A DNA stretch of 55,122 nucleotides from Candidatus Parcubacteria bacterium (GCA_018669975.1 JABHSK010000005.1:1-55122); one strand, 5' to 3'. Counted from the stretch's first letter, positions 3,443 through 31,547 are shown. The notes: generated by a model not told the origin, from the sequence alone. Translations and numbers: made by a program.

Positions 3443-4206
3443 TGAGCGAGTTAAAAATATTATGTTGGAACGTCAATGGCATTAGAGCTGTCATTCGCAA
3501 AGGTTTTCTAGATTTTCTCAAAAAACAAAAACCTGACATTTTATGTATTCAGGAAATAAAAATATCAGACACTGCTCGACATGAGCAGCAGTTTGATTTT
3601 CCTGGCTATCAGGAGTTTTGGAACTCAGCTCAGCGACCAGGTTATAGTGGTACAGCCATTTTAGTTAAAGATGGGATTAAGGTTAATTATTTAGATAGCT
3701 TATCCTGGGATGACGAGGGTCGTGTACAAATTTTAGATGTAGGTAAATATTATTTAGTGAATATTTATTTTCCTAATGCTAATCATGAATTGTCACGTTT
3801 AGATTTCAAAATAAAGTTCTCTGATAAATTATTACTTCATCTTAAAAAATTGGAAAAGAAAAAGCCACTGATAATTACCGGTGATTATAATGTGGCTCAC
3901 AATGAAATTGATTTAGCTAGGCCTAAGCCAAATGTTGGTAATCCAGGCTTTACAGCTGAAGAGAGGGCTTGGATGAATAAGTTTTTAGGCAAAGGTTTTA
4001 AGGATACATTTCGTGAGTTGCATCCCAATAAAATACAGTATTCTTGGTGGAGTTATCGAGCTAACGCTCGTGTTAATAATGTTGGTTGGCGGATAGATTA
4101 TTTTTGCGTGTCTAATAAAATATTAAAAAAAATAAGGCGAGCTTATATACTGGATAAAATTTTAGGATCAGATCATGCGCCTGTAGGTATAGAAATTGAT
4201 GAATAA
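3442..4206 (+). CDS. xth: exodeoxyribonuclease III / AP endonuclease
   Basis: Motifs are ILCWNVNGIRA, ILCIQEIK, YSGTAIL, ITGDYNVAH, WRIDYF and GSDHAPV, typical of the EEP-fold Xth family. The start overlaps the previous stop (TAATG). Confidence 0.9.
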   Translation: MSELKILCWNVNGIRAVIRKGFLDFLKKQKPDILCIQEIKISDTARHEQQFDFPGYQEFWNSAQRPGYSGTAILVKDGIKVNYLDSLSWDDEGRVQILDVGKYYLVNIYFPNANHELSRLDFKIKFSDKLLLHLKKLEKKKPLIITGDYNVAHNEIDLARPKPNVGNPGFTAEERAWMNKFLGKGFKDTFRELHPNKIQYSWWSYRANARVNNVGWRIDYFCVSNKILKKIRRAYILDKILGSDHAPVGIEIDE

Positions 4207-6980: not shown

Positions 6981-7748
6981 ATGGCGCGAATCATTGCGAT
7001 AGTTAATCAAAAAGGAGGCGTAGGAAAAACCACCACCACCATCAATTTGGCTGCGTGGTTGGCTGAGTTTGGCAAGAAAGTTTTGATTGTCGATGTAGAT
7101 CCGCAGGGCAATGCTTCATCTGGCCTAGGTTTAGATTATAAAAATATAAATAAAAGTATATACGATGTTTTGGTAGATTCTAATACTAGAATCACTGAGG
7201 TCATTAAATCTTACCAGCCAAATTTACATATCTTACCAGCCAATCCTGATTTAGCTGGTGCTAGTATAGATTTAGTAGAACATGATAGTCGGGAGTTTAA
7301 ACTGCAGGAAAATTTGCAGGAAGTGATAGATCTTTACGATTTTATTCTAATAGATAATCCACCGTCACTTGGTTTGTTGACTATTAATGGTTTAGTGGCT
7401 GCTAGAGAGATATTAATTCCAGTGCAGTGTGAATATTATGCTTTGGAAGGTTTATCACAACTTTTAAATACCATTGAGTTAATCCAAAAACATTTGCAAC
7501 CAGATTTGAAAGTATTGGGAGCACTTATGACCATGTACGACAGTCGTAATAAATTATCGTCAGATGTTTTTAATGAATTATATAAACATTTCCCTGCTAA
7601 AATATTTCGAAGTGTAATTCCACGTAATGTTCGTGTGGCGGAATCACCTTCCCATGGTATGCCGCTCAAGGATTATGCTGCCAATTCAGTAGGCTCTAAT
7701 GCTTACAAGCGTTTGGCGCAGGAAGTTATTTTGACAACAACTAGTTAA
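6981..7748 (+). CDS. parA: chromosome partitioning ATPase ParA/Soj
   Basis: It has the deviant Walker A NQKGGVGKTTT. Other motifs are VDVDPQGNAS and IDNPPSLG, and parB is adjacent. Confidence 0.92.
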   Translation: MARIIAIVNQKGGVGKTTTTINLAAWLAEFGKKVLIVDVDPQGNASSGLGLDYKNINKSIYDVLVDSNTRITEVIKSYQPNLHILPANPDLAGASIDLVEHDSREFKLQENLQEVIDLYDFILIDNPPSLGLLTINGLVAAREILIPVQCEYYALEGLSQLLNTIELIQKHLQPDLKVLGALMTMYDSRNKLSSDVFNELYKHFPAKIFRSVIPRNVRVAESPSHGMPLKDYAANSVGSNAYKRLAQEVILTTTS

Positions 7749-10181: not shown

Positions 10182-12407
10182 TTAATCTTCAGTTAGGTCA
10201 GCGGGATCTACCTTTTTGCTAAAATCGCAGGATTCACATTTGACGGTTGTTTTATTTGCCTGGACCAATAGTTGTTTACAGTCAGGGCAGTATTCACCAG
10301 TGGGTTTAGACCAAGTCAAATGTTCGCAGTCGGGATATTTATTACAACCATAGAACATTCGGCCTCGTTTGCTGCGCTTAACTACCATTTCTCCTTCGCT
10401 ACATTTCGGACATTTTACACCAGTGCCTTTATCTATATTTTTGGTAGTTTTACATTTCGGATAATCACCGCAAGCTAGAAATTTTCCAAAGCGACCAGTT
10501 TTGACGATCATTGGTTTTTCACAATTCGGGCACTTCTCATCAGTGGTCTCTGGCTCTTCTGGCTCACCATCACTGTTGATGGGTTTGGTGTTTTTACAAT
10601 CTGGGTAGTTTGTACAAGCTAGAAATTTTCCAAAGCGACCAAGTTTGATAATCATTGGATTGCTACATTTTTCACAAACCTCGTCAGTTTTTTCTTCAGT
10701 TAGCTTTTTCTTATCTAATTCTTTTTCTTTCTTTTCCAAATTTTTTGCAAATGGTTTGTAGAATTCAGAGATAACTGGACGCCATTCTTTTTTACCATGA
10801 GCAATAGAATCTAGATCATCTTCCATTTGGGCAGTAAAATTGTAACTAACAATGTCATGGAAATGCTCTACTAATAATTTATTAACTATTTCACCCATTT
10901 CAGTTGGAGCTAATCTTTTTTCTTCTTTGGTGACGTATTGTCTGTCTACGACAGTGGCGATAGTTGGTGCGTAGGTAGACGGTCTGCCGATGCCTAGAGA
11001 CTCCATAGCTTTGACCAAACCGGCTTCAGAATATCTTGCTGGTGGTTTAGTAAAGTGTTGTAATGATTCTAATTTTTTCAAATTTAATTCATCACCCTCT
11101 TTAAGTTCTGGTAATTCATTTTCCTGAGCGTTGGTTTTATATACTTTGTGCCAACCATCAAATTTAATCACGCTACCAACAGCCTTTAATAGCCAGTTAG
11201 TATCTTTAGCTTCAATACCCACAGAAGTAGTTTCGGTAATATATTCGGACATCTGTGAAGCTACGGCTCTTTGCCAGATTAAGCTGTATAGTTTGAATTG
11301 TTTACTATCCAAAAACTCTTTAACAGATTCAGGATCATTAGTGACGTCAGTTGGACGGATGGCCTCATGGGCTTCTTGAGATAATTTTGATTTTTTCTTA
11401 AAAACACGACCACCCTCATTAATATATTCTTTACCGAATTTATCAGTCACATAAGTTATTGTATTATCAACAAAATCTTGTGATAGGTTAAGGGAGTCAG
11501 TTCTCATATAAGTAATCAAACCATGATTACCCTTGTCACCCAATTTGATACCCTCATATAATTGTTGAGCAAGCATCATAATTTGTTTAGCGCTATAACC
11601 AAAGCGACGGTGAGCGTCTTGCTGTAGAGTAGAGGTCATAAAAGGAGGTAGGGGAGTTTTTTTGTTTTCCCTAGCTTTGATATTGGATACCAATAAAGTA
11701 GCTGGCTCAATATCTTTGACGGCTTGCTTGGCTTTTGACTCATCAATATCAAACTTGCCTAGAGGCTTGTTATTTTCTTTGTGTAAGGATAATTCAAATG
11801 CTTCAGCATCACCTTTTTGAGCCTCACCCTCAACTGTCCAGTATTCTTCAGGTTTAAATGCTCTGATTTCTTCTTCTCTTTCTACAATCAAACGCACAGC
11901 TACAGATTGTACGCGACCAGCAGAAAGACCTCTAGCAATTTTTTTCCAAAGTAGAGGGGATAATTTATAACCAACTAAGCGATCCAAAACACGACGCGCT
12001 TGTTGGGCGTCTACTAGGTTATTATCTAGTTTGCGTGGATTATCCAAGGCATTGGTAATTGCTTGTTTGGTAATTTCATGAAAAGCAATACGCCTTTCTT
12101 TTTTAGCTGGTAAATCCAACAAATTGTATAGGTGCCAGCTAATAGCTTCTCCTTCACGGTCTTCATCAGTTGCGAAGTAAACCACCTCAGCATCTTTAGC
12201 TAACTTTTTTAATTTAGTGACTGTTTTTTTGGCTCTAGCTGGAACTTCATAGGTAGGCTCAAAATTATCATCCACATCAACACCGAGTTTGCTTTTTGGC
12301 AAATCTCTAACGTGTCCAAATGATGATTCCACTTTGTACTCTTTACCCAAAAAGCCTTTAATGGTTTTAGCCTTAGTTGGGGACTCAACGATTACTAGTT
12401 TTGACAT
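10182..12407 (-). CDS. topA: DNA topoisomerase I with four C-terminal C4 zinc ribbons
   Basis: The TOPRIM start is LVIVESPTKAKTI. DEDREGEAI and the active-site region YMRTDS are present. The tail has repeated CxxC...GRFGKFLAC..YPxC modules. Confidence 0.95.
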   Translation of the reverse strand: MSKLVIVESPTKAKTIKGFLGKEYKVESSFGHVRDLPKSKLGVDVDDNFEPTYEVPARAKKTVTKLKKLAKDAEVVYFATDEDREGEAISWHLYNLLDLPAKKERRIAFHEITKQAITNALDNPRKLDNNLVDAQQARRVLDRLVGYKLSPLLWKKIARGLSAGRVQSVAVRLIVEREEEIRAFKPEEYWTVEGEAQKGDAEAFELSLHKENNKPLGKFDIDESKAKQAVKDIEPATLLVSNIKARENKKTPLPPFMTSTLQQDAHRRFGYSAKQIMMLAQQLYEGIKLGDKGNHGLITYMRTDSLNLSQDFVDNTITYVTDKFGKEYINEGGRVFKKKSKLSQEAHEAIRPTDVTNDPESVKEFLDSKQFKLYSLIWQRAVASQMSEYITETTSVGIEAKDTNWLLKAVGSVIKFDGWHKVYKTNAQENELPELKEGDELNLKKLESLQHFTKPPARYSEAGLVKAMESLGIGRPSTYAPTIATVVDRQYVTKEEKRLAPTEMGEIVNKLLVEHFHDIVSYNFTAQMEDDLDSIAHGKKEWRPVISEFYKPFAKNLEKKEKELDKKKLTEEKTDEVCEKCSNPMIIKLGRFGKFLACTNYPDCKNTKPINSDGEPEEPETTDEKCPNCEKPMIVKTGRFGKFLACGDYPKCKTTKNIDKGTGVKCPKCSEGEMVVKRSKRGRMFYGCNKYPDCEHLTWSKPTGEYCPDCKQLLVQANKTTVKCESCDFSKKVDPADLTED

Positions 12408-24000: not shown

Positions 24001-25843
24001 ACTAGTCAAAAGAAGTTTGGACGCTGCTAGGAAATCTCCAGTTAGAAAAAAATCTTATTCAGCCCCGACACTTAAAAAGAAAAAGAGGAGAGAGGTACCA
24101 CAGGAGTATCGTACTTTTAAAAAAGCGCCAAAGAGCAAAGGCGGTTGCTTGTGGTTTTTATTTTTACTTTTTGCAGCAGCTGTAGCTGGACTGATATATT
24201 GGAATCGACAGGCACCAGTAGTGATAGATAATAGTTTAGAATTTTTGGTGACTGGTCCAAATAAAATAGTATCCGGTGATCAGATTAGTTATTTTGTAGA
24301 ATATAAGAATTTGGATTCAGTGGCACTGACAAACATGAAGCTTAGTGTGCAATGGCCAGATGGATTCTATTTTGATGAAGCTAGTCTTGAGCCCAGTGAT
24401 GCCAACGCAACTACTTGGGAAATAGCAGATTTGCAGCCAGGGCACGAGCAGAATTTAGAAATAAAAGGACAATTAGTGGGTCCAAAAGATGAGGAGCTAT
24501 CAGCCATGTTTAGTCTTGGTTATCAACCAGAGAATTTTAACTCTGATTTTCAAGGAAACATGACAATAAAAACTAAGGTAGAAGATAGTAAGATAGATGT
24601 GTTAGTGGAGGCTATCGACAAGACTTTGGTTGAGAGTGAGCAAGAGATGAGAATTACCTTACGCAATCTTACAGAAGAAGAGTTAAGTGATTTATATGTA
24701 GACATTCTTTATCCAGATGATCTAGATATAATAGAGGATGTGCCAGCTGATGAAGAAGATGAGGAAACCGAGGAAGAAGTAGCAGAAGAAGAATTGGGAA
24801 TGATACAAAAGGATGGGTATTTAGTTTTCAACTTATCACCAGAAGAAGAGAGAACAATAATTATTAATGGAGTTTTTGCAGCTGATAGTAAAGCAGAGCA
24901 ATCATTGGTGGTTGAAGTGGGTAACATGTTCAACGAAAATTTCCGTCGTTTAGCTAGAACGGAGAAGAATATTGTAGTTGTCAATCCACAATTTGATGTT
25001 AATTTGGAAATAAATGGAAATAGTAATAATCAATCAGTTAATTGGGGAGATGATCTACGTTATCAATTGGAAATAACCAATACTAGTGATACTGATGTGT
25101 CAGACACAAAGATAACAGCTTTGTTGGATGGTGGTGTGTTAGATTGGGACAGCCTAGAAACGATAGGAGTTTATCAGGAGTCTAATATTATTTGGACTAG
25201 TACAGAAAATGAAGAGTTGCTTAATTGGTCAGCTGGAGAGACTAAAACTTTTACTTGGCAAGTAGAGGTAGTTGAAGAGCCTCAGGCCGAGAGAGCTGTA
25301 GAAAACATAATTAAAGTAAATATTCAGGGACTAAGTGAGTGGGAACAAGTAAGTTCACCTATTGTTTTAACGGTTGGTGAGAGTCTAGCTTTTAATAATG
25401 GTATCTATTGGGATTTAGGTGGACGTAGAGTTGGCTCTGGTTTATTGCCGCCACAGGTTGGTGAATCAACACAATATTTGGCAGTCTGGTCTTTAAATGA
25501 TGTTACTGGAGAATTTGATACTGTTAATATAAACACCACCTTACCACCAGAAGTATCTTTTATCAGTGAAACAGATGTTCAAGAAGGTGTGTTGAATTTT
25601 GATGAAGAGGCCAGAACACTTTCCTGGAGTCTATCAGAATTTGGTGATTATATCTGGCCACTTACTGCTACCTTTATTATTGAATTAGAACCAAACAAAG
25701 ATAATCAAGGAGAGACAATGACTTTATTTAACACTACTACAGTAGTAGCTGTTGGATTGGAAGAAGTTATTGTTCGATCTAAACCTATTAAAACTTCAGA
25801 TGTAGTGGTTGACTCAGATGAGCCAGTTGGAATAGTAGAGTAA
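23993..25843 (+). CDS. large membrane-anchored extracytoplasmic protein, unknown function
   Basis: It has a basic N-tail, one TM segment (LWFLFLLFAAAVAGLIYW), beta-rich repeat-like segments and a DE-rich insert (ADEEDEETEEEVAEEE). It overlaps the recO stop by 8 nt. Confidence 0.6.
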   Translation: MAKLVKRSLDAARKSPVRKKSYSAPTLKKKKRREVPQEYRTFKKAPKSKGGCLWFLFLLFAAAVAGLIYWNRQAPVVIDNSLEFLVTGPNKIVSGDQISYFVEYKNLDSVALTNMKLSVQWPDGFYFDEASLEPSDANATTWEIADLQPGHEQNLEIKGQLVGPKDEELSAMFSLGYQPENFNSDFQGNMTIKTKVEDSKIDVLVEAIDKTLVESEQEMRITLRNLTEEELSDLYVDILYPDDLDIIEDVPADEEDEETEEEVAEEELGMIQKDGYLVFNLSPEEERTIIINGVFAADSKAEQSLVVEVGNMFNENFRRLARTEKNIVVVNPQFDVNLEINGNSNNQSVNWGDDLRYQLEITNTSDTDVSDTKITALLDGGVLDWDSLETIGVYQESNIIWTSTENEELLNWSAGETKTFTWQVEVVEEPQAERAVENIIKVNIQGLSEWEQVSSPIVLTVGESLAFNNGIYWDLGGRRVGSGLLPPQVGESTQYLAVWSLNDVTGEFDTVNINTTLPPEVSFISETDVQEGVLNFDEEARTLSWSLSEFGDYIWPLTATFIIELEPNKDNQGETMTLFNTTTVVAVGLEEVIVRSKPIKTSDVVVDSDEPVGIVE

Positions 25844-25845
25844 AT

Positions 25846-26943
25846 ATGTTTAAGTTAAAGAAACAATCAAAAAAATCCAATAGTAGATTGGGAGTATTGA
25901 GTACTGCTCATGGTAGTATTGATACTCCTTTTTTTATGCCTATAGCTACTAAGGCAGCTATTAAGAGCATGACTGTTCAAGAGGTTAAAGATTTGGGAGC
26001 ACAAATTATTTTGTCCAATACTTATCATAATTATCTTAAGCCCGGTGTGGATATTATTAAGAAATTTGGCAACCTGCATAATTTTATGGATAGTGATTTA
26101 CCTCTATTGACCGACAGTGGCGGTTATCAGGTTTTTTCTTTAGCGAACCTACGAAAGATAAAAGGAGATGATATTGAGTTTCAATCTCACATTGATGGTT
26201 CTAAACATATTCTCAATCCTAAAAAGGTAGTTGATATCCAAGTTACTTTAGGTAGTGACATTATGATGGTGCTAGATGAATGTGTAGGATTGCCCAGCAC
26301 CAAGAAAAAAGCCACAGAGGCTTTGGAGCGAACTACTCGTTGGGCAAAGATATCTTTAGAATATAAAAACAAATTAAATAAAAAATCAGCCGACATTAAA
26401 AAACAATTAATGTTTGCTATTGTGCAAGGGGCAGATTTTAAAGATCTTAGACTTAGGTCTGCCGAGGAATTGACAGCCATGGAGTTTGATGGTTTTGCGG
26501 TTGGTGGTTTGGCAGTGGGAGAGCCTACTAAAACTATGTATCAGGTATTGGATTATACAGTGCCAGCTTTGCCAGAAGATAAGCCGCGCTATTTAATGGG
26601 AGTTGGTTATCCAGAAAATATAGTAGAAGCTGTTAAACGAGGTATTGATATGTTTGACTGTGTGATTCCTACTAGAGAAGCTAGACATGGGAAGCTCTAT
26701 GTGAGGAGGAAAAAGGGTCTAGGAGATGGGTTTTACGAGACCATCAATATAACGAATGCTAGATTTGCTAACGACAAAACGCTATTAGCAAATGGACGAT
26801 TCGGTAAGTATTCATTGGCTTACATGCATCATCTATTCAAGACGCAGGAGACGCTAGGAACGCGTCTAGCGACCATGAATAACATAAGCTTCTATTTAGA
26901 CCTAATGAGTGATATACGAAAAGCCATCAAAGTTAGAGGTTGA
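25846..26943 (+). CDS. tgt: queuine/preQ1 tRNA-ribosyltransferase (tRNA-guanine transglycosylase)
   Basis: Motifs are TPFFMPIAT, LLTDSGGYQVFSL, FAIVQG, GFAVGGLAVGE, LMGVGYPE and the catalytic DMFDCVIPTR. The last 98 codons appear to be of different origin (see findings). Confidence 0.92.
   Translation: MFKLKKQSKKSNSRLGVLSTAHGSIDTPFFMPIATKAAIKSMTVQEVKDLGAQIILSNTYHNYLKPGVDIIKKFGNLHNFMDSDLPLLTDSGGYQVFSLANLRKIKGDDIEFQSHIDGSKHILNPKKVVDIQVTLGSDIMMVLDECVGLPSTKKKATEALERTTRWAKISLEYKNKLNKKSADIKKQLMFAIVQGADFKDLRLRSAEELTAMEFDGFAVGGLAVGEPTKTMYQVLDYTVPALPEDKPRYLMGVGYPENIVEAVKRGIDMFDCVIPTREARHGKLYVRRKKGLGDGFYETINITNARFANDKTLLANGRFGKYSLAYMHHLFKTQETLGTRLATMNNISFYLDLMSDIRKAIKVRG
26650..26690 (+). repeat. direct repeat copy 1 (candidate attL core) inside tgt
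   Basis: ATGTTTGACTGTGTGATTCCTACTAGAGAAGCTAGACATGG is identical base for base to 29321..29361. Confidence 0.9.
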
Positions 26944-27490
26944 AAACTATCTAAAGCTATGGGATTCATTGGAAAATTATGTACTACAAGAAAGTAGTTT
27001 GAGAAAATTGTTTACAGAAACTTACCCGGACAATAAACTTATAGAAAATGTTTTAATCAAGGTGTGTTCATTAAATGATTTTTATAGCACAAACATATTT
27101 TCACCATTCACAGTGGCTAAGCATATTGTTAATTTAAATATTGATGATGATCTTTCCAAGGAAGACTTAGAACTTGTTAATAGGATTGCAAAGGTAGAAA
27201 TGGCCGGTAATAAAATAAAGAATTTTTATTCATTTGCAACTAAATACTGTAGTCATCATAAACCGGAAGTATATCCTATATATGATTCTTATGTTGAAAA
27301 AATGTTGGTGTACTTTAAAAAACAAGATAATTTTGATGATTTTAGTACTGAAGATTTGAAGGTTTATCCAAAATTTAGGGAAATACTGGGAAAGTTTAGG
27401 GACTATTATAATTTGGAAGAATTTGATTTGAAACAAATTGATAAATACTTGTGGCAAGCTGGAAAAAAGTATTTTCCAAGAAAGTATTAA
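26909..27490 (+). CDS. hypothetical protein (193 aa), first cargo ORF
   Basis: The ORF is long and open with no in-frame ATG near its 5' end. The start is uncertain (GTG at 26909, inside the last 35 nt of tgt). I recognise no family. Confidence 0.5.
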   Translation: MIYEKPSKLEVENYLKLWDSLENYVLQESSLRKLFTETYPDNKLIENVLIKVCSLNDFYSTNIFSPFTVAKHIVNLNIDDDLSKEDLELVNRIAKVEMAGNKIKNFYSFATKYCSHHKPEVYPIYDSYVEKMLVYFKKQDNFDDFSTEDLKVYPKFREILGKFRDYYNLEEFDLKQIDKYLWQAGKKYFPRKY

Positions 27491-27494
27491 CTAT

Positions 27495-27605
27495 ATGAGC
27501 AAGGATAGTAAGGAAAAAGAGTATAAAAATCTAGTTGAGTTCTTCGTACTACTACTAGATATAGATAGGAGAACTAATCCTGATAAATATAAGCTTAAAA
27601 AATAA
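27495..27605 (+). CDS. possible 36-codon ORF (below ORF-track cutoff)
   Basis: The ORF runs ATG to TAA and encodes MSKDSKEKEYKNLVEFFVLLLDIDRRTNPDKYKLKK. Its stop lies in the recurring TAATTAG junction motif. There is no other support. Confidence 0.25.
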   Translation: MSKDSKEKEYKNLVEFFVLLLDIDRRTNPDKYKLKK

Positions 27606-27621
27606 TTAGTAAGCTAGGTAT

Positions 27622-28137
27622 ATGAAAAAACCCATTCTACCATTATTAATCTTTCTACTTGTAGTCATGGGTTTTGGTGTATTTAATTTTTTGAATGATA
27701 AACAAGTAGAAAATAATGATGATTCAAAGAAACACACCTTGAATGATGATAATTATGAGGAGGAATGCGACCCGCTTCTATCAGAAAAAATATGTAATTA
27801 TATATCAGCTTCTTCTTATTGGGTAGACGATATTAATGTTGTAGATGTTACTGGGGATGGTGTAACTGATTATTTAGTCGAAGTAGTTAATGAAGGTTGT
27901 GGAAGTTGTCATCCTCGTTATGTTTTATTTTTTGAGAATGATAAAGTATACTATCAGTATGATGGCGATGATGCTAGTGTATATGAACCTGATAAAATTA
28001 AGGATGGGAAAGTAGTGATTGAAGAACCAATTAGGAAAGAAGATGAGGCATTATGTTGCGCATCTTCGTATAAAAAAACACTTATTCAATGTGAGAAAGA
28101 AAACGATTATACACTTTGCGAAAAAATAGATAATTAG
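27622..28137 (+). CDS. hypothetical secreted or membrane-anchored Cys-rich protein
   Basis: An N-terminal signal/anchor is present (ILPLLIFLLVVMGFGVF), there are 8 Cys, and there is a DVTGDGVTD segment. The junction motif precedes it. Confidence 0.6.
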   Translation: MKKPILPLLIFLLVVMGFGVFNFLNDKQVENNDDSKKHTLNDDNYEEECDPLLSEKICNYISASSYWVDDINVVDVTGDGVTDYLVEVVNEGCGSCHPRYVLFFENDKVYYQYDGDDASVYEPDKIKDGKVVIEEPIRKEDEALCCASSYKKTLIQCEKENDYTLCEKIDN

Positions 28138-28149
28138 TAAGTTGGATAT

Positions 28150-28485
28150 ATGAAATTATTAGAAATAATAAGTAGTACACTATTCATTGCTGCAATAGTT
28201 TTATCCTTCATAGATTGGAAAATTGCCATTTGGCTATGGTCATCGTCAATTGTAATACATTCTATACCATTGGGACCAGATAAATTGTTAGGAATAATTA
28301 CTGGCGTATTAATTTTACTTGGTTTGGTTTATATTATATTTATTAATTGGATACCTGGTTTATTATTAATAATAGCAGGCTCTATTATTACAAGATTTCG
28401 TTTGTATTCTAGAAAATTGATCATTAGGTATTACAAAAATAACCCCAAAGAATTAAATAAAATTAAAGAGAAAAATAATAAATAA
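28150..28485 (+). CDS. hypothetical small integral membrane protein
   Basis: 111 aa with three hydrophobic helices and a basic C-tail. The junction motif precedes it. Confidence 0.55.
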   Translation: MKLLEIISSTLFIAAIVLSFIDWKIAIWLWSSSIVIHSIPLGPDKLLGIITGVLILLGLVYIIFINWIPGLLLIIAGSIITRFRLYSRKLIIRYYKNNPKELNKIKEKNNK

Positions 28486-28494
28486 ATTAGTTGA

Positions 28495-28638
28495 ATGGTT
28501 AAAAAATACAGACCACAAAGTTGTTGGAAAAACAGTGACTGTAGTATAGGTTGTTGCGCTTATGTCCCTGAGAATCGTAGGGAGGCTTTAAGGTGTGCTA
28601 TTAAGAAATGGTGGAGTGGTTTGTGGCCAGCTAGTTAA
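28495..28638 (+). CDS. possible 47-codon Cys-rich ORF (below ORF-track cutoff)
   Basis: It encodes MVKKYRPQSCWKNSDCSIGCCAYVPENRREALRCAIKKWWSGLWPAS, with 6 Cys. Junction-like motifs sit on both sides. Confidence 0.3.
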   Translation: MVKKYRPQSCWKNSDCSIGCCAYVPENRREALRCAIKKWWSGLWPAS

Positions 28639-28655
28639 TTAGATAAAGTGGATGT

Positions 28656-28946
28656 ATGTCAATAAAAAAAGATTTAGAATGCATGGAAAAAATACTTAAA
28701 AGAGATCAGGTAACTGCTGAAGAGTTTTTCAAAGGTGCTATAGCTCTTATGAGGATGCACAGAAGGAGTTTAGTAACAATGAAAAATGAAGGAAAAGTTG
28801 TGCGTGAGTTTGTTAGCAGGCATCTCGAGGTTAGAGACAAGGAGACCGCAGTTATGATAAATTTTATTAAAAGTTATGAAAAAACATTTAGGGGCTATAA
28901 AAAGTTGATGATGAATGAAAAGAAGAATAAAAATGTTAAAAAATAA
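28656..28946 (+). CDS. hypothetical small basic helical protein
   Basis: 96 aa with no TM segment and a Lys-rich tail. The junction motif precedes it. Confidence 0.5.
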   Translation: MSIKKDLECMEKILKRDQVTAEEFFKGAIALMRMHRRSLVTMKNEGKVVREFVSRHLEVRDKETAVMINFIKSYEKTFRGYKKLMMNEKKNKNVKK

Positions 28947-28959
28947 TTGAATTAGATAT

Positions 28960-29223
28960 ATGAAAAAGATTTTATTAATTTTAATAGCCCCCTTATTAAT
29001 GGGAGCGGGATGTTCTAATAAAAGTTGGACAGGTTATTATTATCCAGACTCCAATGATCTAGAATATTATAAAACTTCATTTGGCTTTGAATCATTAGAA
29101 GATTGTAGAGATTGGGCGCTTTCTATAGCAAATGATAATGAAAACTGGGATTACGAATGTGGTTACAATTGTCGTGTTGATAAAGACTTAGCTATTAATG
29201 TGTGTGATAAAACAGACAAATAA
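28960..29223 (+). CDS. small lipoprotein, unknown function
   Basis: The signal peptide has the lipobox-like sequence LLMGAGC. The mature part has 5 further Cys. The junction motif precedes it. Confidence 0.6.
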   Translation: MKKILLILIAPLLMGAGCSNKSWTGYYYPDSNDLEYYKTSFGFESLEDCRDWALSIANDNENWDYECGYNCRVDKDLAINVCDKTDK

Positions 29224-29320
29224 AGATACTAAATAGTTCATTAGATATAACAAAAGATTTAATAAGTAATTCATACGAACATGTTAGTTCTATTTTTCCT
29301 AGGTCTTAGATCCCAATTAT

Positions 29321-29617
29321 ATGTTTGACTGTGTGATTCCTACTAGAGAAGCTAGACATGGAAAATTATATATTAGAAAAAAAGCAGGCTTTGGTAAAGA
29401 TTTTTATGAGAACATTATTATTACCAATGCTAAATTTAAAAATGATAAGCGTCCAATAAATAATAATAGTTTAAAAAACTATTCCCGAGCTTATTTACAT
29501 CATTTATTTAAAACTCAAGAACCTCTAGCATTAAGATTAGCCACAACGAATAATATAGAATTTTATCTGCAGTTGATGGCTGACATTAGATCTGCCGTGA
29601 AAGGGGGTAAGTTATGA
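29321..29617 (+). pseudogene. orphan 3' fragment of tgt (last 98 codons), displaced copy
   Basis: MFDCVIPTREARHGKLYIRKK...YSRAYLHHLFKTQEPLALRLATTNNIEFYLQLMADIR aligns end to end with Tgt residues 269-365. There is no upstream tgt sequence. The fragment begins exactly at the 41-bp repeat (29321..29361). Confidence 0.85.
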
Positions 29618-29681
29618 GAGATTTGAAGCTAAATATTGAAGATATTCATAATTATTATGATTTCTATCTCTTTGTATGTGT

Positions 29682-29710
29682 CTGATGTCTGATATACGAA
29701 AAACTATACG
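29682..29710 (+). other. possible third, very short tgt 3'-end remnant
   Basis: CTGATGTCTGATATACGAAAAACTATACG matches 26902..26930 (CTAATGAGTGATATACGAAAAGCCATCAA) at 21 of 29 positions, with a 13-nt exact core. It encodes LMSDIRKTI, against LMSDIRKAI at the Tgt C-terminus. Confidence 0.35.
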
Positions 29711-29711
29711 T

Positions 29712-30593
29712 ATGAGCAAAAGAGGATTTACCATAATAGAATTGATTATTGTAATAACCATTGTAGCGGTACTAGCAATTGGTATTTTTGTAGCCGTTGA
29801 TCCAGCCAAGCGTATTGGTGAAGCTAGAGATGCACAACGTTGGTCAGACTTGATAGCTATAGCTAAGGCAGTCGAACTTTATACAGCTGACAATGGTCAG
29901 TTGCCGTCAGATTTTTCGGTAAGCAATATAGCTGAGGGGGAAAAGCTGGTTTTGTGTAGTAGTGCCGCAAGTAGAACCTGTGATGGTCAAACCGAAGCAT
30001 GTCTAGTAGTTGATGATTCAGATTTTTTGGGAGTCTACTTAAATTCTATACCTATTGACCCTAGTAAATCAGTGGATACAGATACTGGATACTACATAAC
30101 TCGTGGCAGTGGTAATTCAATTACTTTTGGTGTTTGTGATGCCTATAACTCAGCCGGCATTGAAATGAAGGCTCAAGTTTCGATGGCCACTCTGGTAGCT
30201 GTCTGCGGTGATGGTGATATAGAGGGCAGTGAGGCCTGTGATGATAGTAATGAAGTAACAGAAACACAGACTTGTGGCAATGGCACCCAAGAAAATGGTA
30301 CATATTGTAATGCTACTTGTACAGCGGAAGTAGTTTTGACGGAGGCTTGTGATGATGGTGATGTGCAGAATGAGACCTGCGGTGATGGTGAAATCCAAAC
30401 GATATTCGGTGATTATTGCAACTCAACTTGCACAGCTACTATAGTATTTCCAGCCCCAGAATATTGTGATTATGATACTTTTACCAATGATTGTAATGAT
30501 GCTATCTATGGTTGGTTGACAGAGGCAGACGTTGGTACGGGAAACTTCTGCAGAGAAGGAATTTGTAATTCTAAGATCCTTCTTTGCCTTTAA
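29712..30593 (+). CDS. type IV pilin-like protein with Cys-rich C-terminal repeats
   Basis: The class III signal is MSKRGFTIIELIIVITIVAVLA (G|FTxxE). The pilin-like core reads DPAKRIGEARDAQRWSDLIAIAKAVELY. The C-terminal half has about 24 Cys in CGDG/CDDG-type repeats. The ATG at 29712 is preferred over the track start at 29676. Confidence 0.85.
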   Translation: MSKRGFTIIELIIVITIVAVLAIGIFVAVDPAKRIGEARDAQRWSDLIAIAKAVELYTADNGQLPSDFSVSNIAEGEKLVLCSSAASRTCDGQTEACLVVDDSDFLGVYLNSIPIDPSKSVDTDTGYYITRGSGNSITFGVCDAYNSAGIEMKAQVSMATLVAVCGDGDIEGSEACDDSNEVTETQTCGNGTQENGTYCNATCTAEVVLTEACDDGDVQNETCGDGEIQTIFGDYCNSTCTATIVFPAPEYCDYDTFTNDCNDAIYGWLTEADVGTGNFCREGICNSKILLCL

Positions 30594-30623
30594 TATTACA
30601 AAATATATTATTAATATAAATAT

Positions 30624-31547
30624 ATGTTAGTAGATTTCTTAAAGAAGCAAACAGGTTTTACTATGCCAACCTTAATGTTGACTATAGCGGTTGTGTTATT
30701 ATTGGCTACTTCAGTGTTAGTAACAGTAAATCCAGCCAAGCGTATTGGTAAATCAAAAAATGCTCGTCGTTTAGCTGATATTACAGCTATTGCTAAAGCA
30801 GTAGAAACCTACGCTATAGACAATCATCAACTTCCTTCAGATTTTTCTACTACAAGTTTGTCTACAGAAAACAAATTTGTTTTATGTAGCTCAGAAGGAG
30901 CACTTACTTGTAATGGAGAAACTTGGGGTTGTCTAGTAGTGGATGATGATGATTTTTTAGGTGTGTATTTACCTACTTTGCCCGTAGATCCTTCGAAATC
31001 AGATGCAAGTGATACGGGTTATTATGTGACTAGGAAAGCTGATAATATGTTAGCAATAGGGTCTTGTGATACCTATAATGATGATACTATTCAGGTGGTA
31101 TCCAAGGCAGCCTTGCCAGATTATGTCGCTTTGCCAGTTTGTGGCAATCTTATCATTGAGGGCAATGAGGCTTGTGATGATGGTGATAGAGAAAACGAAA
31201 CACAGACTTGCGGTAATGGCATCCAAGAAAATGGTACTTATTGTAATTCTACTTGTACAGCAGTAATAAATTTGACCGAAGCCTGTGATGATGGTGATAC
31301 TGATTGGGAGACCTGTGGTAACTCTACGTTAGATTCAGCGGGCACTTATTGCAATCCTACTTGTACAAGTGTAACAGTTGTATCTAGCGACGAGTGGTGT
31401 GATTCGAATGGATCTGGTGGTTTATGTATAGATGAAGGTACTAATTATTATTCAACTGGCTTTGTGTGGGATGGTATTAATTGCACTAAATTTGATGCTG
31501 GTTGTTCTGATACTTGTCATGCTTGTATATGGGCTTGCGGCTTCTAA
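30624..31547 (+). CDS. pilin-like paralog with a degenerate prepilin signal and Cys-rich C-terminal repeats
   Basis: It is a paralog of the preceding gene (NPAKRIGKSKNARRLADITAIAKAVETY). The leader is KKQTGFTMPTLML, which lacks Glu at +5. The same CDDGD...ETCGN...YCN.TCT repeats are present. Confidence 0.8.
   Translation: MLVDFLKKQTGFTMPTLMLTIAVVLLLATSVLVTVNPAKRIGKSKNARRLADITAIAKAVETYAIDNHQLPSDFSTTSLSTENKFVLCSSEGALTCNGETWGCLVVDDDDFLGVYLPTLPVDPSKSDASDTGYYVTRKADNMLAIGSCDTYNDDTIQVVSKAALPDYVALPVCGNLIIEGNEACDDGDRENETQTCGNGIQENGTYCNSTCTAVINLTEACDDGDTDWETCGNSTLDSAGTYCNPTCTSVTVVSSDEWCDSNGSGGLCIDEGTNYYSTGFVWDGINCTKFDAGCSDTCHACIWACGF

Follow-up and report, generated by a model that had tools for sequence, protein, structure and literature searches.

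How did a Parcubacteria chromosome come to carry the 3′ end of tgt twice? The question is raised by a stretch of 55,122 nucleotides from Candidatus Parcubacteria bacterium (GCA_018669975.1, JABHSK010000005.1:1-55122), a member of the candidate phyla radiation (CPR). This whole stretch is called the window, and positions are counted from its first letter. The window is AT-rich (G+C 36%), and near-identical contigs are known from several marine metagenomes with public assemblies, for example from Saanich Inlet and Line P. An intact tgt gene, encoding queuine tRNA-ribosyltransferase (25846-26943, 365 aa), is followed by an orphan open reading frame (ORF) of 98 codons (29321-29617) which repeats the C-terminal quarter of Tgt. 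The original prediction, made from the sequence of the window, explained this arrangement by a circular DNA with its own tgt 3′ end that had recombined with the chromosomal gene at a short core. Support for it was provided by the affiliations of the two tgt tails, by empty sites, by joined island ends and by an element in a related genome, L014. The island between the two tgt ends is probably a small site-specific integrative element within tgt, an integrase-less member of a tgt-targeting family that resembles a cis-mobilisable element (CIME).

The direct repeat in tgt

An exact direct repeat of 43 bp is present at 26648-26690 and 29319-29361. The predicted identical tract of 41 nt (26650-26690 and 29321-29361) was confirmed base for base and is extended by 2 nt on its 5′ side. 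The spacing of the two copies, 2,671 bp, agrees with the predicted displacement of the native tgt end by about 2.7 kb. Upstream, the 60 nt 5′ of the repeats agree at 11 of 60 positions only, as expected from the claim that nothing before the orphan resembles tgt. In the 90 nt downstream of the core the predicted drop in identity was observed, with a corrected count of 55 instead of 57 matching positions. The switch in composition within these 90 nt also holds, with 37 G+C in the fused tail (38 had been claimed) against 20 in the orphan. The junction is sharp, as proposed, and not part of a long gene-conversion tract.

The core pattern occurs twice in the window, against an expectation of 0 from shuffled sequences. 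The encoded peptide (M/L)FDCVIPTREARHG is identical in 75 other genomes. At the DNA level, these genomes deviate from the core of the window in 4-13 of its 41 positions, with a median of 7. The identity of the two core copies hence goes beyond protein conservation, because the same peptide is coded by differing DNA in these genomes. A scan of JGI data for the exact core found one contig with the left attachment site (attL), one with the right attachment site (attR) and nothing else. As in the insertion of e14 into icd, direct repeats flank the island and one copy lies within the target gene.

Origin of the two tgt tails

Among the relatives with a full-length Tgt, P0005 on contig L013 is the closest. 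The 5′ part of its tgt is 82.7% identical to that of the window on the nucleotide level, and its intact gene carries a tail of the orphan type, with 92% amino acid and 79% nucleotide identity to window positions 29321-29617. The surrogate tail, which completes tgt in the window, has a different affiliation, as predicted. It shares 75% of nucleotides and 77% of amino acids with the element-borne tail that is fused to tgt in the syntenic genome L014. Within the window, surrogate and orphan tail are about 60% identical in nucleotides, and the same value separates the surrogate tail in L014 from the orphan of its own host. Judged by these affiliations, the fused tail (26691-26943) is the element-borne end and the orphan (29321-29617) is the native end of tgt. 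Again as in icd, tgt remains open through a surrogate end, and its native end persists as a displaced fragment.

The predicted difference in composition was seen over the whole tails. The G+C content is 0.41 for the surrogate and 0.28 for the orphan tail in the window, with the same asymmetry in L014 (0.42 and 0.24). In relatives without an island, the native tails (L013, 0.34; L019, 0.32) lie 0.05-0.09 below their own 5′ parts. The low G+C content of the orphan is therefore native-like.

The surrogate tail is of a GRFG type which is rare, being present in 2 of 79 species representatives. The assumption that this type is always element-borne was rejected. L019/L104 and L108 have a GRFG tail without an island; the tail type is native in a few lineages, and alone it is no marker of an occupied site.

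Empty sites and joined ends

On L013, a gap of 20 nt separates tgt from a downstream type IV pilin-like gene, the homologue of the window gene at 29712. This is the empty site. Further syntenic, unoccupied loci, with tgt directly followed by host genes, were found in the genome of P0008 (L104/L106), in L107 and in L108. The predicted empty site thus exists in related species and was not found within the same species. The species of the window is represented by 18 contigs from at least 12 samples, all with the island at 99.6-100% identity. Differing gene lists had suggested that the island is polymorphic between strains. This was rejected, as contigs L003-L012 align at 99.6-100% without structural change.

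A circular or tandem form of the island predicts a junction of its two ends. Such a junction was found in two independent metagenome assemblies, on the short contigs L001 (ERZ27237566, 560 bp) and L002 (ERZ23491669, 510 bp). Both carry the surrogate tail as a free-standing ORF (P0125). The order is island right end (window up to 29320), core, surrogate tail and island left end (26691 onward), with 1 mismatch to the window in L001 and 0 in L002. An artefact of the assembly graph seems unlikely, because the 43-bp repeat is shorter than the k-mer of 141 given in the contig name of L001 and because the junction is present in two assemblies. Two origins would fit the contigs equally: the island may have been excised as a circle, with the junction as its attachment site (attP), or it may be duplicated head to tail, with the junction inside the duplication.

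An integrase-bearing relative at the same core

L014 (identical with L020, a species representative in GTDB) has an insertion of 7,952 bp at the same tgt core. The locus is syntenic with the window: a CLIPPER-domain protein and tgt precede the insertion, and a 126-aa protein, ClpB, GlyRS and an M16 peptidase follow it. The element has a 22-bp identity block, TGTTTGATTGTGTTATTCCTAC, and an orphan tail of 100 aa. In the window, 22 bp of attL (26651-26672) overlap this block in TGTTTGAYTGTGTKATTCCTAC. A XerC/D-like tyrosine integrase of 311 aa, with Phage_int_SAM_1/4 and Phage_integrase domains, starts 67 nt from the attR core. The element also encodes a 64-aa HTH_17 protein, plausibly a putative excisionase, as well as Phage_rep_O and a fragment of a CHC2 zinc-ribbon primase.

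The integrase has one close homologue among the matches listed from 5.8 billion proteins, P0242 with 59% identity. On its contig, L098, a core coding for FDCVIPTRE is located about 68 nt upstream of the integrase start. As both integrases adjoin the tgt core, they represent a small tyrosine-integrase clade tied to this site. The island of the window has no integrase beside its attachment sites, unlike L014/L020 and L098. An integrase of the L014 clade likely made the insertion, and the island may have lost its own integrase or may never have had one.

Among 79 species-level genomes with this Tgt type, a clear second tail with an integrase was found in L020 only. Other 'orphan' Tgt tails from the protein search were considered as parallels. 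Most of those checked were contig-end fragments (L100) or frameshifted genes (L099), and the sole true parallel among them was P0123 on L014. In L035, a weak second tblastn match to the tgt tail (10849-10950), about 500 nt downstream of an intact tgt and without a visible ORF, may be another relic. Scans of IMG/VR with the core DNA, with the tail proteins and with the integrase revealed no relatives. Literature searches on tgt as an attachment site and on integrative elements of CPR bacteria found nothing specific.

The element in L014 also has a bAvd-like/23S_rRNA_IVP gene (7206-7679). Genes of the bAvd-like type accompany diversity-generating retroelements; no reverse transcriptase is annotated there.

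Proposed mechanism and parts of the locus

The event may have started from a circular DNA with an attachment site composed of the tgt core and its own copy of the last 83 tgt codons. A crossover with the chromosomal tgt would occur within the core TGTTTGAYTGTGTKATTCCTAC. The 5′ part of the host gene would be fused to the tail of the element, so that the gene stays open, and the native tail would be shifted 2.67 kb downstream as an orphan. The enzymes responsible may be XerC/D-like tyrosine integrases, which are encoded beside attP in the fuller relatives (L014/L020, 7.95 kb). The copy in the window would be a CIME-like derivative or a miniature, with attL and attR intact and with cargo genes only. 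The parts of the locus are:

25846..26647, plus strand: native 5′ part of tgt (queuine tRNA-ribosyltransferase; PF01702 TGT), host DNA up to the crossover core, as judged by identity to the L013 gene
26648..26690, plus strand: attL core, left copy of the 43-bp repeat, coding for (D)MFDCVIPTREARHG
26691..26943, plus strand: element-borne surrogate 3′ end of tgt, 83 codons and stop, assigned by tail affinity, G+C content and its continuity with the island right end in L001 and L002
26909..29223, plus strand: cargo of seven small co-oriented ORFs, G+C 0.295 against a window mean of 0.36
29224..29318, plus strand: non-coding arm that separates the attR core from the final cargo gene, weakly similar to the arms of L014 and L098
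29319..29361, plus strand: attR core, right copy of the 43-bp repeat
29362..29617, plus strand: displaced native 3′ end of tgt, the rest of the orphan ORF with its frame still open, assigned by its likeness to the L013 tail and by G+C content
29662..29711, plus strand: small remnant of one more tgt 3′ end (FYL..LMSDIRKTIR), abutting the start codon of the pilin gene (29712), recognised when aligned locally with the last part of the surrogate tail

Island body and cargo

The repeats bracket an AT-rich unit of 2,671 bp. Its seven ORFs encode products of 193, 35, 171, 111, 47, 96 and 87 aa, with predicted secreted, membrane and lipoprotein products among them. Searches of the island ORFs against Pfam, PHROGs, NCBIfam and PADLOC gave no match above threshold, and no recombinase, replication or transfer gene was recognised. 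With tblastn added to these searches, the claim that no integrase or recombinase is encoded between the repeats was confirmed. A recombinase domain was also absent from all ORFs of at least 100 aa in the window, and no xer gene was seen in the 55 kb. Lacking an integrase, the island can recombine only through a recombinase provided in trans or through homologous recombination of the 43-bp repeats. Its present recombination may use an integrase in trans, a host Xer or RecA acting on the 43 bp. Three options had been offered for the missing integrase: a decayed element, an element mobilised in trans and an unrecognised mechanism. The last is the least likely, because the related element at the same core has an ordinary tyrosine integrase.

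The 193-aa product has a precomputed annotation as PF27257 HI_0787_N. A single-sequence AlphaFold model of this protein had a mean predicted local distance difference test score (pLDDT) of 40 and was unusable, and a literature search on HI_0787 found nothing. The 35-aa ORF (27498-27605) has a homologue in the L014 element (3513-3653, minus strand) with 55% identity over 31 aa. It encodes a small basic protein with the motif LV.FF.LLL..DRR.NP..YK common to both elements. The likeness between the lipoproteins of the island and of the L014 element is confined to the signal peptide. The arm in front of attR shares with L014 and L098 weakly conserved stretches, for example the motif TTTTTCCTA. It is located where the related elements have the start of the integrase and an arm of about 67 nt; tblastn detected no integrase remnant in it.

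The search for phage features gave no structural, packaging or replication genes in the island, and matches to PHROGs had E-values of 0.013 or higher only. Plasmid and phage collections and IMG/VR had no match to the island. Rfam models gave nothing over 25000-31000, and a promoter and terminator scan was uninformative.

The intergenic motif TAATTAGTAAGyTrGrTATATGAAA is specific to the island. Where one cargo gene follows another, it covers the stop codon, a Shine-Dalgarno-like GGA/AGG and the next start codon. Two sites are strong (27603-27627 and 28131-28155; 0 expected), and weaker ones lie near 28471, 28636 and 28938. A low-coverage contig, L113 (ERZ508549, coverage 1.7), is identical to window positions 25859-27297 and has unrelated DNA on both sides (L113 1-272 and 1712-2176). 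On its right side the 193-aa ORF runs on into a vWA-like domain (DRSGSMSG), and on its left side a peroxiredoxin-like fragment is present. L113 is either a chimeric assembly or a variant island.

Alternative explanations

Several results weigh against an integrative element that was inserted by a tyrosine integrase. A tblastn search with the L014 integrase against the 55-kb window had no match, and the source contig of 844 kb contains none of the top 120 integrase homologues listed. Contig searches did not find a full-length circular contig of 2.7 kb, and the sequence searches found no protein or contig of the empty form (attB) of the window's species. The junction of L001 and L002 could equally be explained by a tandem duplication via RecA between the 43-bp repeats. 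Beyond the tail, the 35-aa ORF and the lipoprotein signal peptide, the island and the L014 element have no sequence in common, and with so little shared, a simple descent by deletion from an L014-type element is at most a possibility. One integration event alone would not produce the relic at 29662-29711, which suggests earlier events at the site. A rival course is a RecA-dependent Campbell insertion, in which a circle with a foreign tgt 3′ fragment would have recombined with its homologue, the best-conserved stretch of tgt, with no site-specific recombinase ever involved. The absence of an integrase from the island agrees with it, as do the lack of an attB form beside the junction and an identity tract of 43 bp, longer than the 22 bp of L014. 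Repeats of 43 bp are long enough for low-level RecA recombination. This course of events is nevertheless unlikely. In another genome, an element with an integrase has this 22-bp segment as its crossover site, the second integrase of the clade adjoins the segment, and the surrogate tails of both elements are related, which argues for an element lineage with this attP. For the junction contigs, the RecA explanation assumes tandem duplications or circles formed by homologous recombination of the repeats. The junction was assembled in two low-coverage metagenomes, which is unexpected for a rare recombination over 43 bp.

The island could also be an active element without integrase that is mobilised in trans, a satellite or mini-circle which still excises and perhaps replicates. 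Its recombinase would be a host Xer-type enzyme, that of a co-resident helper or the product of an unannotated ORF of its own. Joined ends in two independent samples, with 0-1 single-nucleotide differences from the integrated copy, speak for such activity. So do the perfectly intact attL and attR, the conservation of the island at 99.6-100% across the sampled strains and the XerC/D-like nature of the family integrase itself. Against it stand the absence of a helper and of an Xer gene from the 55 kb, of a replication gene recognised in the island and of complete circular or attB contigs among those found; the same junction is also explained by a tandem duplication. Mobilisation in trans is a minor possibility. 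A bolder version, slightly less likely, is a living mini-element that excises often enough to be assembled from metagenomes, with a recombinase in trans (host Xer-type or visiting helper) or among its own small ORFs, and whose tail swapping also leaves mosaic patches in tgt, as in L107. The polarity of the event might finally be the reverse: the intact tgt with its GC-richer tail would be native, and the AT-rich orphan would be part of an AT-rich island that landed downstream of tgt. The similar composition of orphan (0.28) and island body (0.295), and of the fused tail (0.41) and the adjoining 5′ region of tgt (0.36-0.42), would suit this order. Yet the recombining unit in L001 and L002 includes the GC-rich tail and not the orphan, the closest relative has the orphan-type tail on its intact tgt, native tails of L013 and L019 show the same drop in G+C content, and the GRFG type is rare among species representatives. 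Tail affiliations and junction contigs contradict the reverse polarity and exclude it; it is extremely improbable. Insertion of an element by an integrase of the L014 clade remains the preferred explanation.

Comparison with known systems

The mechanism is classic and contains no new principle. New are the target gene, the host phylum and the integrase-less form with evidence for joined ends. The island works like a CIME; lacking an integrase, it falls outside the autonomous integrative elements.

The account of e14 and phage 21 in icd of Escherichia coli K-12 describes an integration in the 3′ part of the gene, with an alternative 3′ end supplied by the element, by which icd remains functional, and icdC left as a pseudogene beyond the far end of the element; e14 is excised by recombination of icd with the displaced fragment (PMC13626634, citing Hill et al. 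1989). The island has the same arrangement: it lies in a conserved housekeeping gene, towards the 3′ side, and goes with a surrogate and a displaced native gene end. The prophage e14 has 15 kb, its own integrase and excision functions; the window element has 2.67 kb and no recombinase. The targets differ as well, icd in E. coli and tgt in Parcubacteria.

CIMEs are derivatives of integrative and conjugative elements and integrative and mobilisable elements of Streptococcus. They reside in the 3′ end of the gene that serves as target, and a related element that enters the cell is able to recombine them (PMC5704250). The island agrees with the published definition, as attL and attR are kept and genes for integration and transfer are absent (PMC5704250). 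It differs in that no conjugation context is known in CPR bacteria and no accreted helper lies beside it. Its descent from a larger element is an inference; the features in common with L014 are the tail (75% nucleotide identity), the 35-aa ORF and a weakly similar arm.

Integrative mobile elements exploiting Xer (IMEXs), for example CTXphi, have no recombinase and rely on host XerC/D for integration at dif. The island also lacks a recombinase, and the integrase family of the tgt site is XerC/D-like. Unlike dif, the site of chromosome dimer resolution, the tgt site lies inside a coding sequence.

The dusA-specific integrases are a dedicated clade of tyrosine integrases with one conserved site in a tRNA-modification gene of many bacteria, where the element restores the gene end (PMC4482086). 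The tgt elements appear similar in having an integrase clade, a conserved site in the gene of a tRNA-modification enzyme and a restored gene end. The dusA elements differ by insertion at the 5′ end, their occurrence in Proteobacteria and their integrase; here, the site is in the 3′ third of tgt. The integrase clade of the tgt site has two members found.

Tycheposons of marine Prochlorococcus are presented as small integrative elements; in streamlined bacteria of the sea, genomic islands are shaped by them (bioRxiv 10.1101/2020.12.28.424599). At the level of this description, the island is comparable as a small integrative element in a streamlined marine bacterium.

Significance for CPR genomes

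To our knowledge, mobile elements of Patescibacteria/CPR are poorly described, and the genomes of these hosts are very small. The region of the catalytic-Asp motif of tgt provides a concrete attachment site for CPR elements. It is used by a small clade of tyrosine integrases and is occupied by an integrase-less derivative whose ends are joined in environmental data. Core and surrogate tail together are a simple signature by which metagenome-assembled genomes of CPR bacteria can be screened for more such elements. Through the elements, about a quarter of an enzyme of an essential pathway is exchanged for a foreign version; mosaic tgt tails in relatives may have arisen in this way. With a textbook mechanism, the value lies in cataloguing and in a lead for CPR genetics.

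Further observations at the locus

The relic at 29662-29711 most resembles the end of a surrogate-type tail; the 20-nt spacer of L013 lacks it. Its alignment score of 27 was above the scores of all 568 of 568 natural 95-nt windows and was reached by 0.05% of shuffled sequences.

In L107, which has an empty-site tgt and is related to the L014 host, a patch of the element type, about 45 nt long (TLLAEGKFGK), lies within an otherwise native-type tail (10780-11107). The identity to the native tail falls from 80-90% to about 40% in the patch, which could be the trace of a gene conversion by an element-borne tail.

Of the Parcubacteria Tgt proteins that were fetched (L019-L097; in the window 26780-26870 and 29450-29540), nearly all lack the four residues which, from the Tgt of E. 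coli and Z. mobilis, we take to be the zinc ligands of canonical Tgt. The CxCxxC motif is replaced by PINxxNLKN or LLAxGRFG, and the His of 'HN' by Asn. CxCxxC and His are kept in L081 and L097 only.

Downstream of the locus, two tandem pilin-like paralogues (29712-30593 and 30624-31547) have an N-terminal methylation motif. Their internal Cys-rich repeats (GTYCN.TCT, EACDDGD) correspond to the direct-repeat families D1 and D3-D6 of the window.

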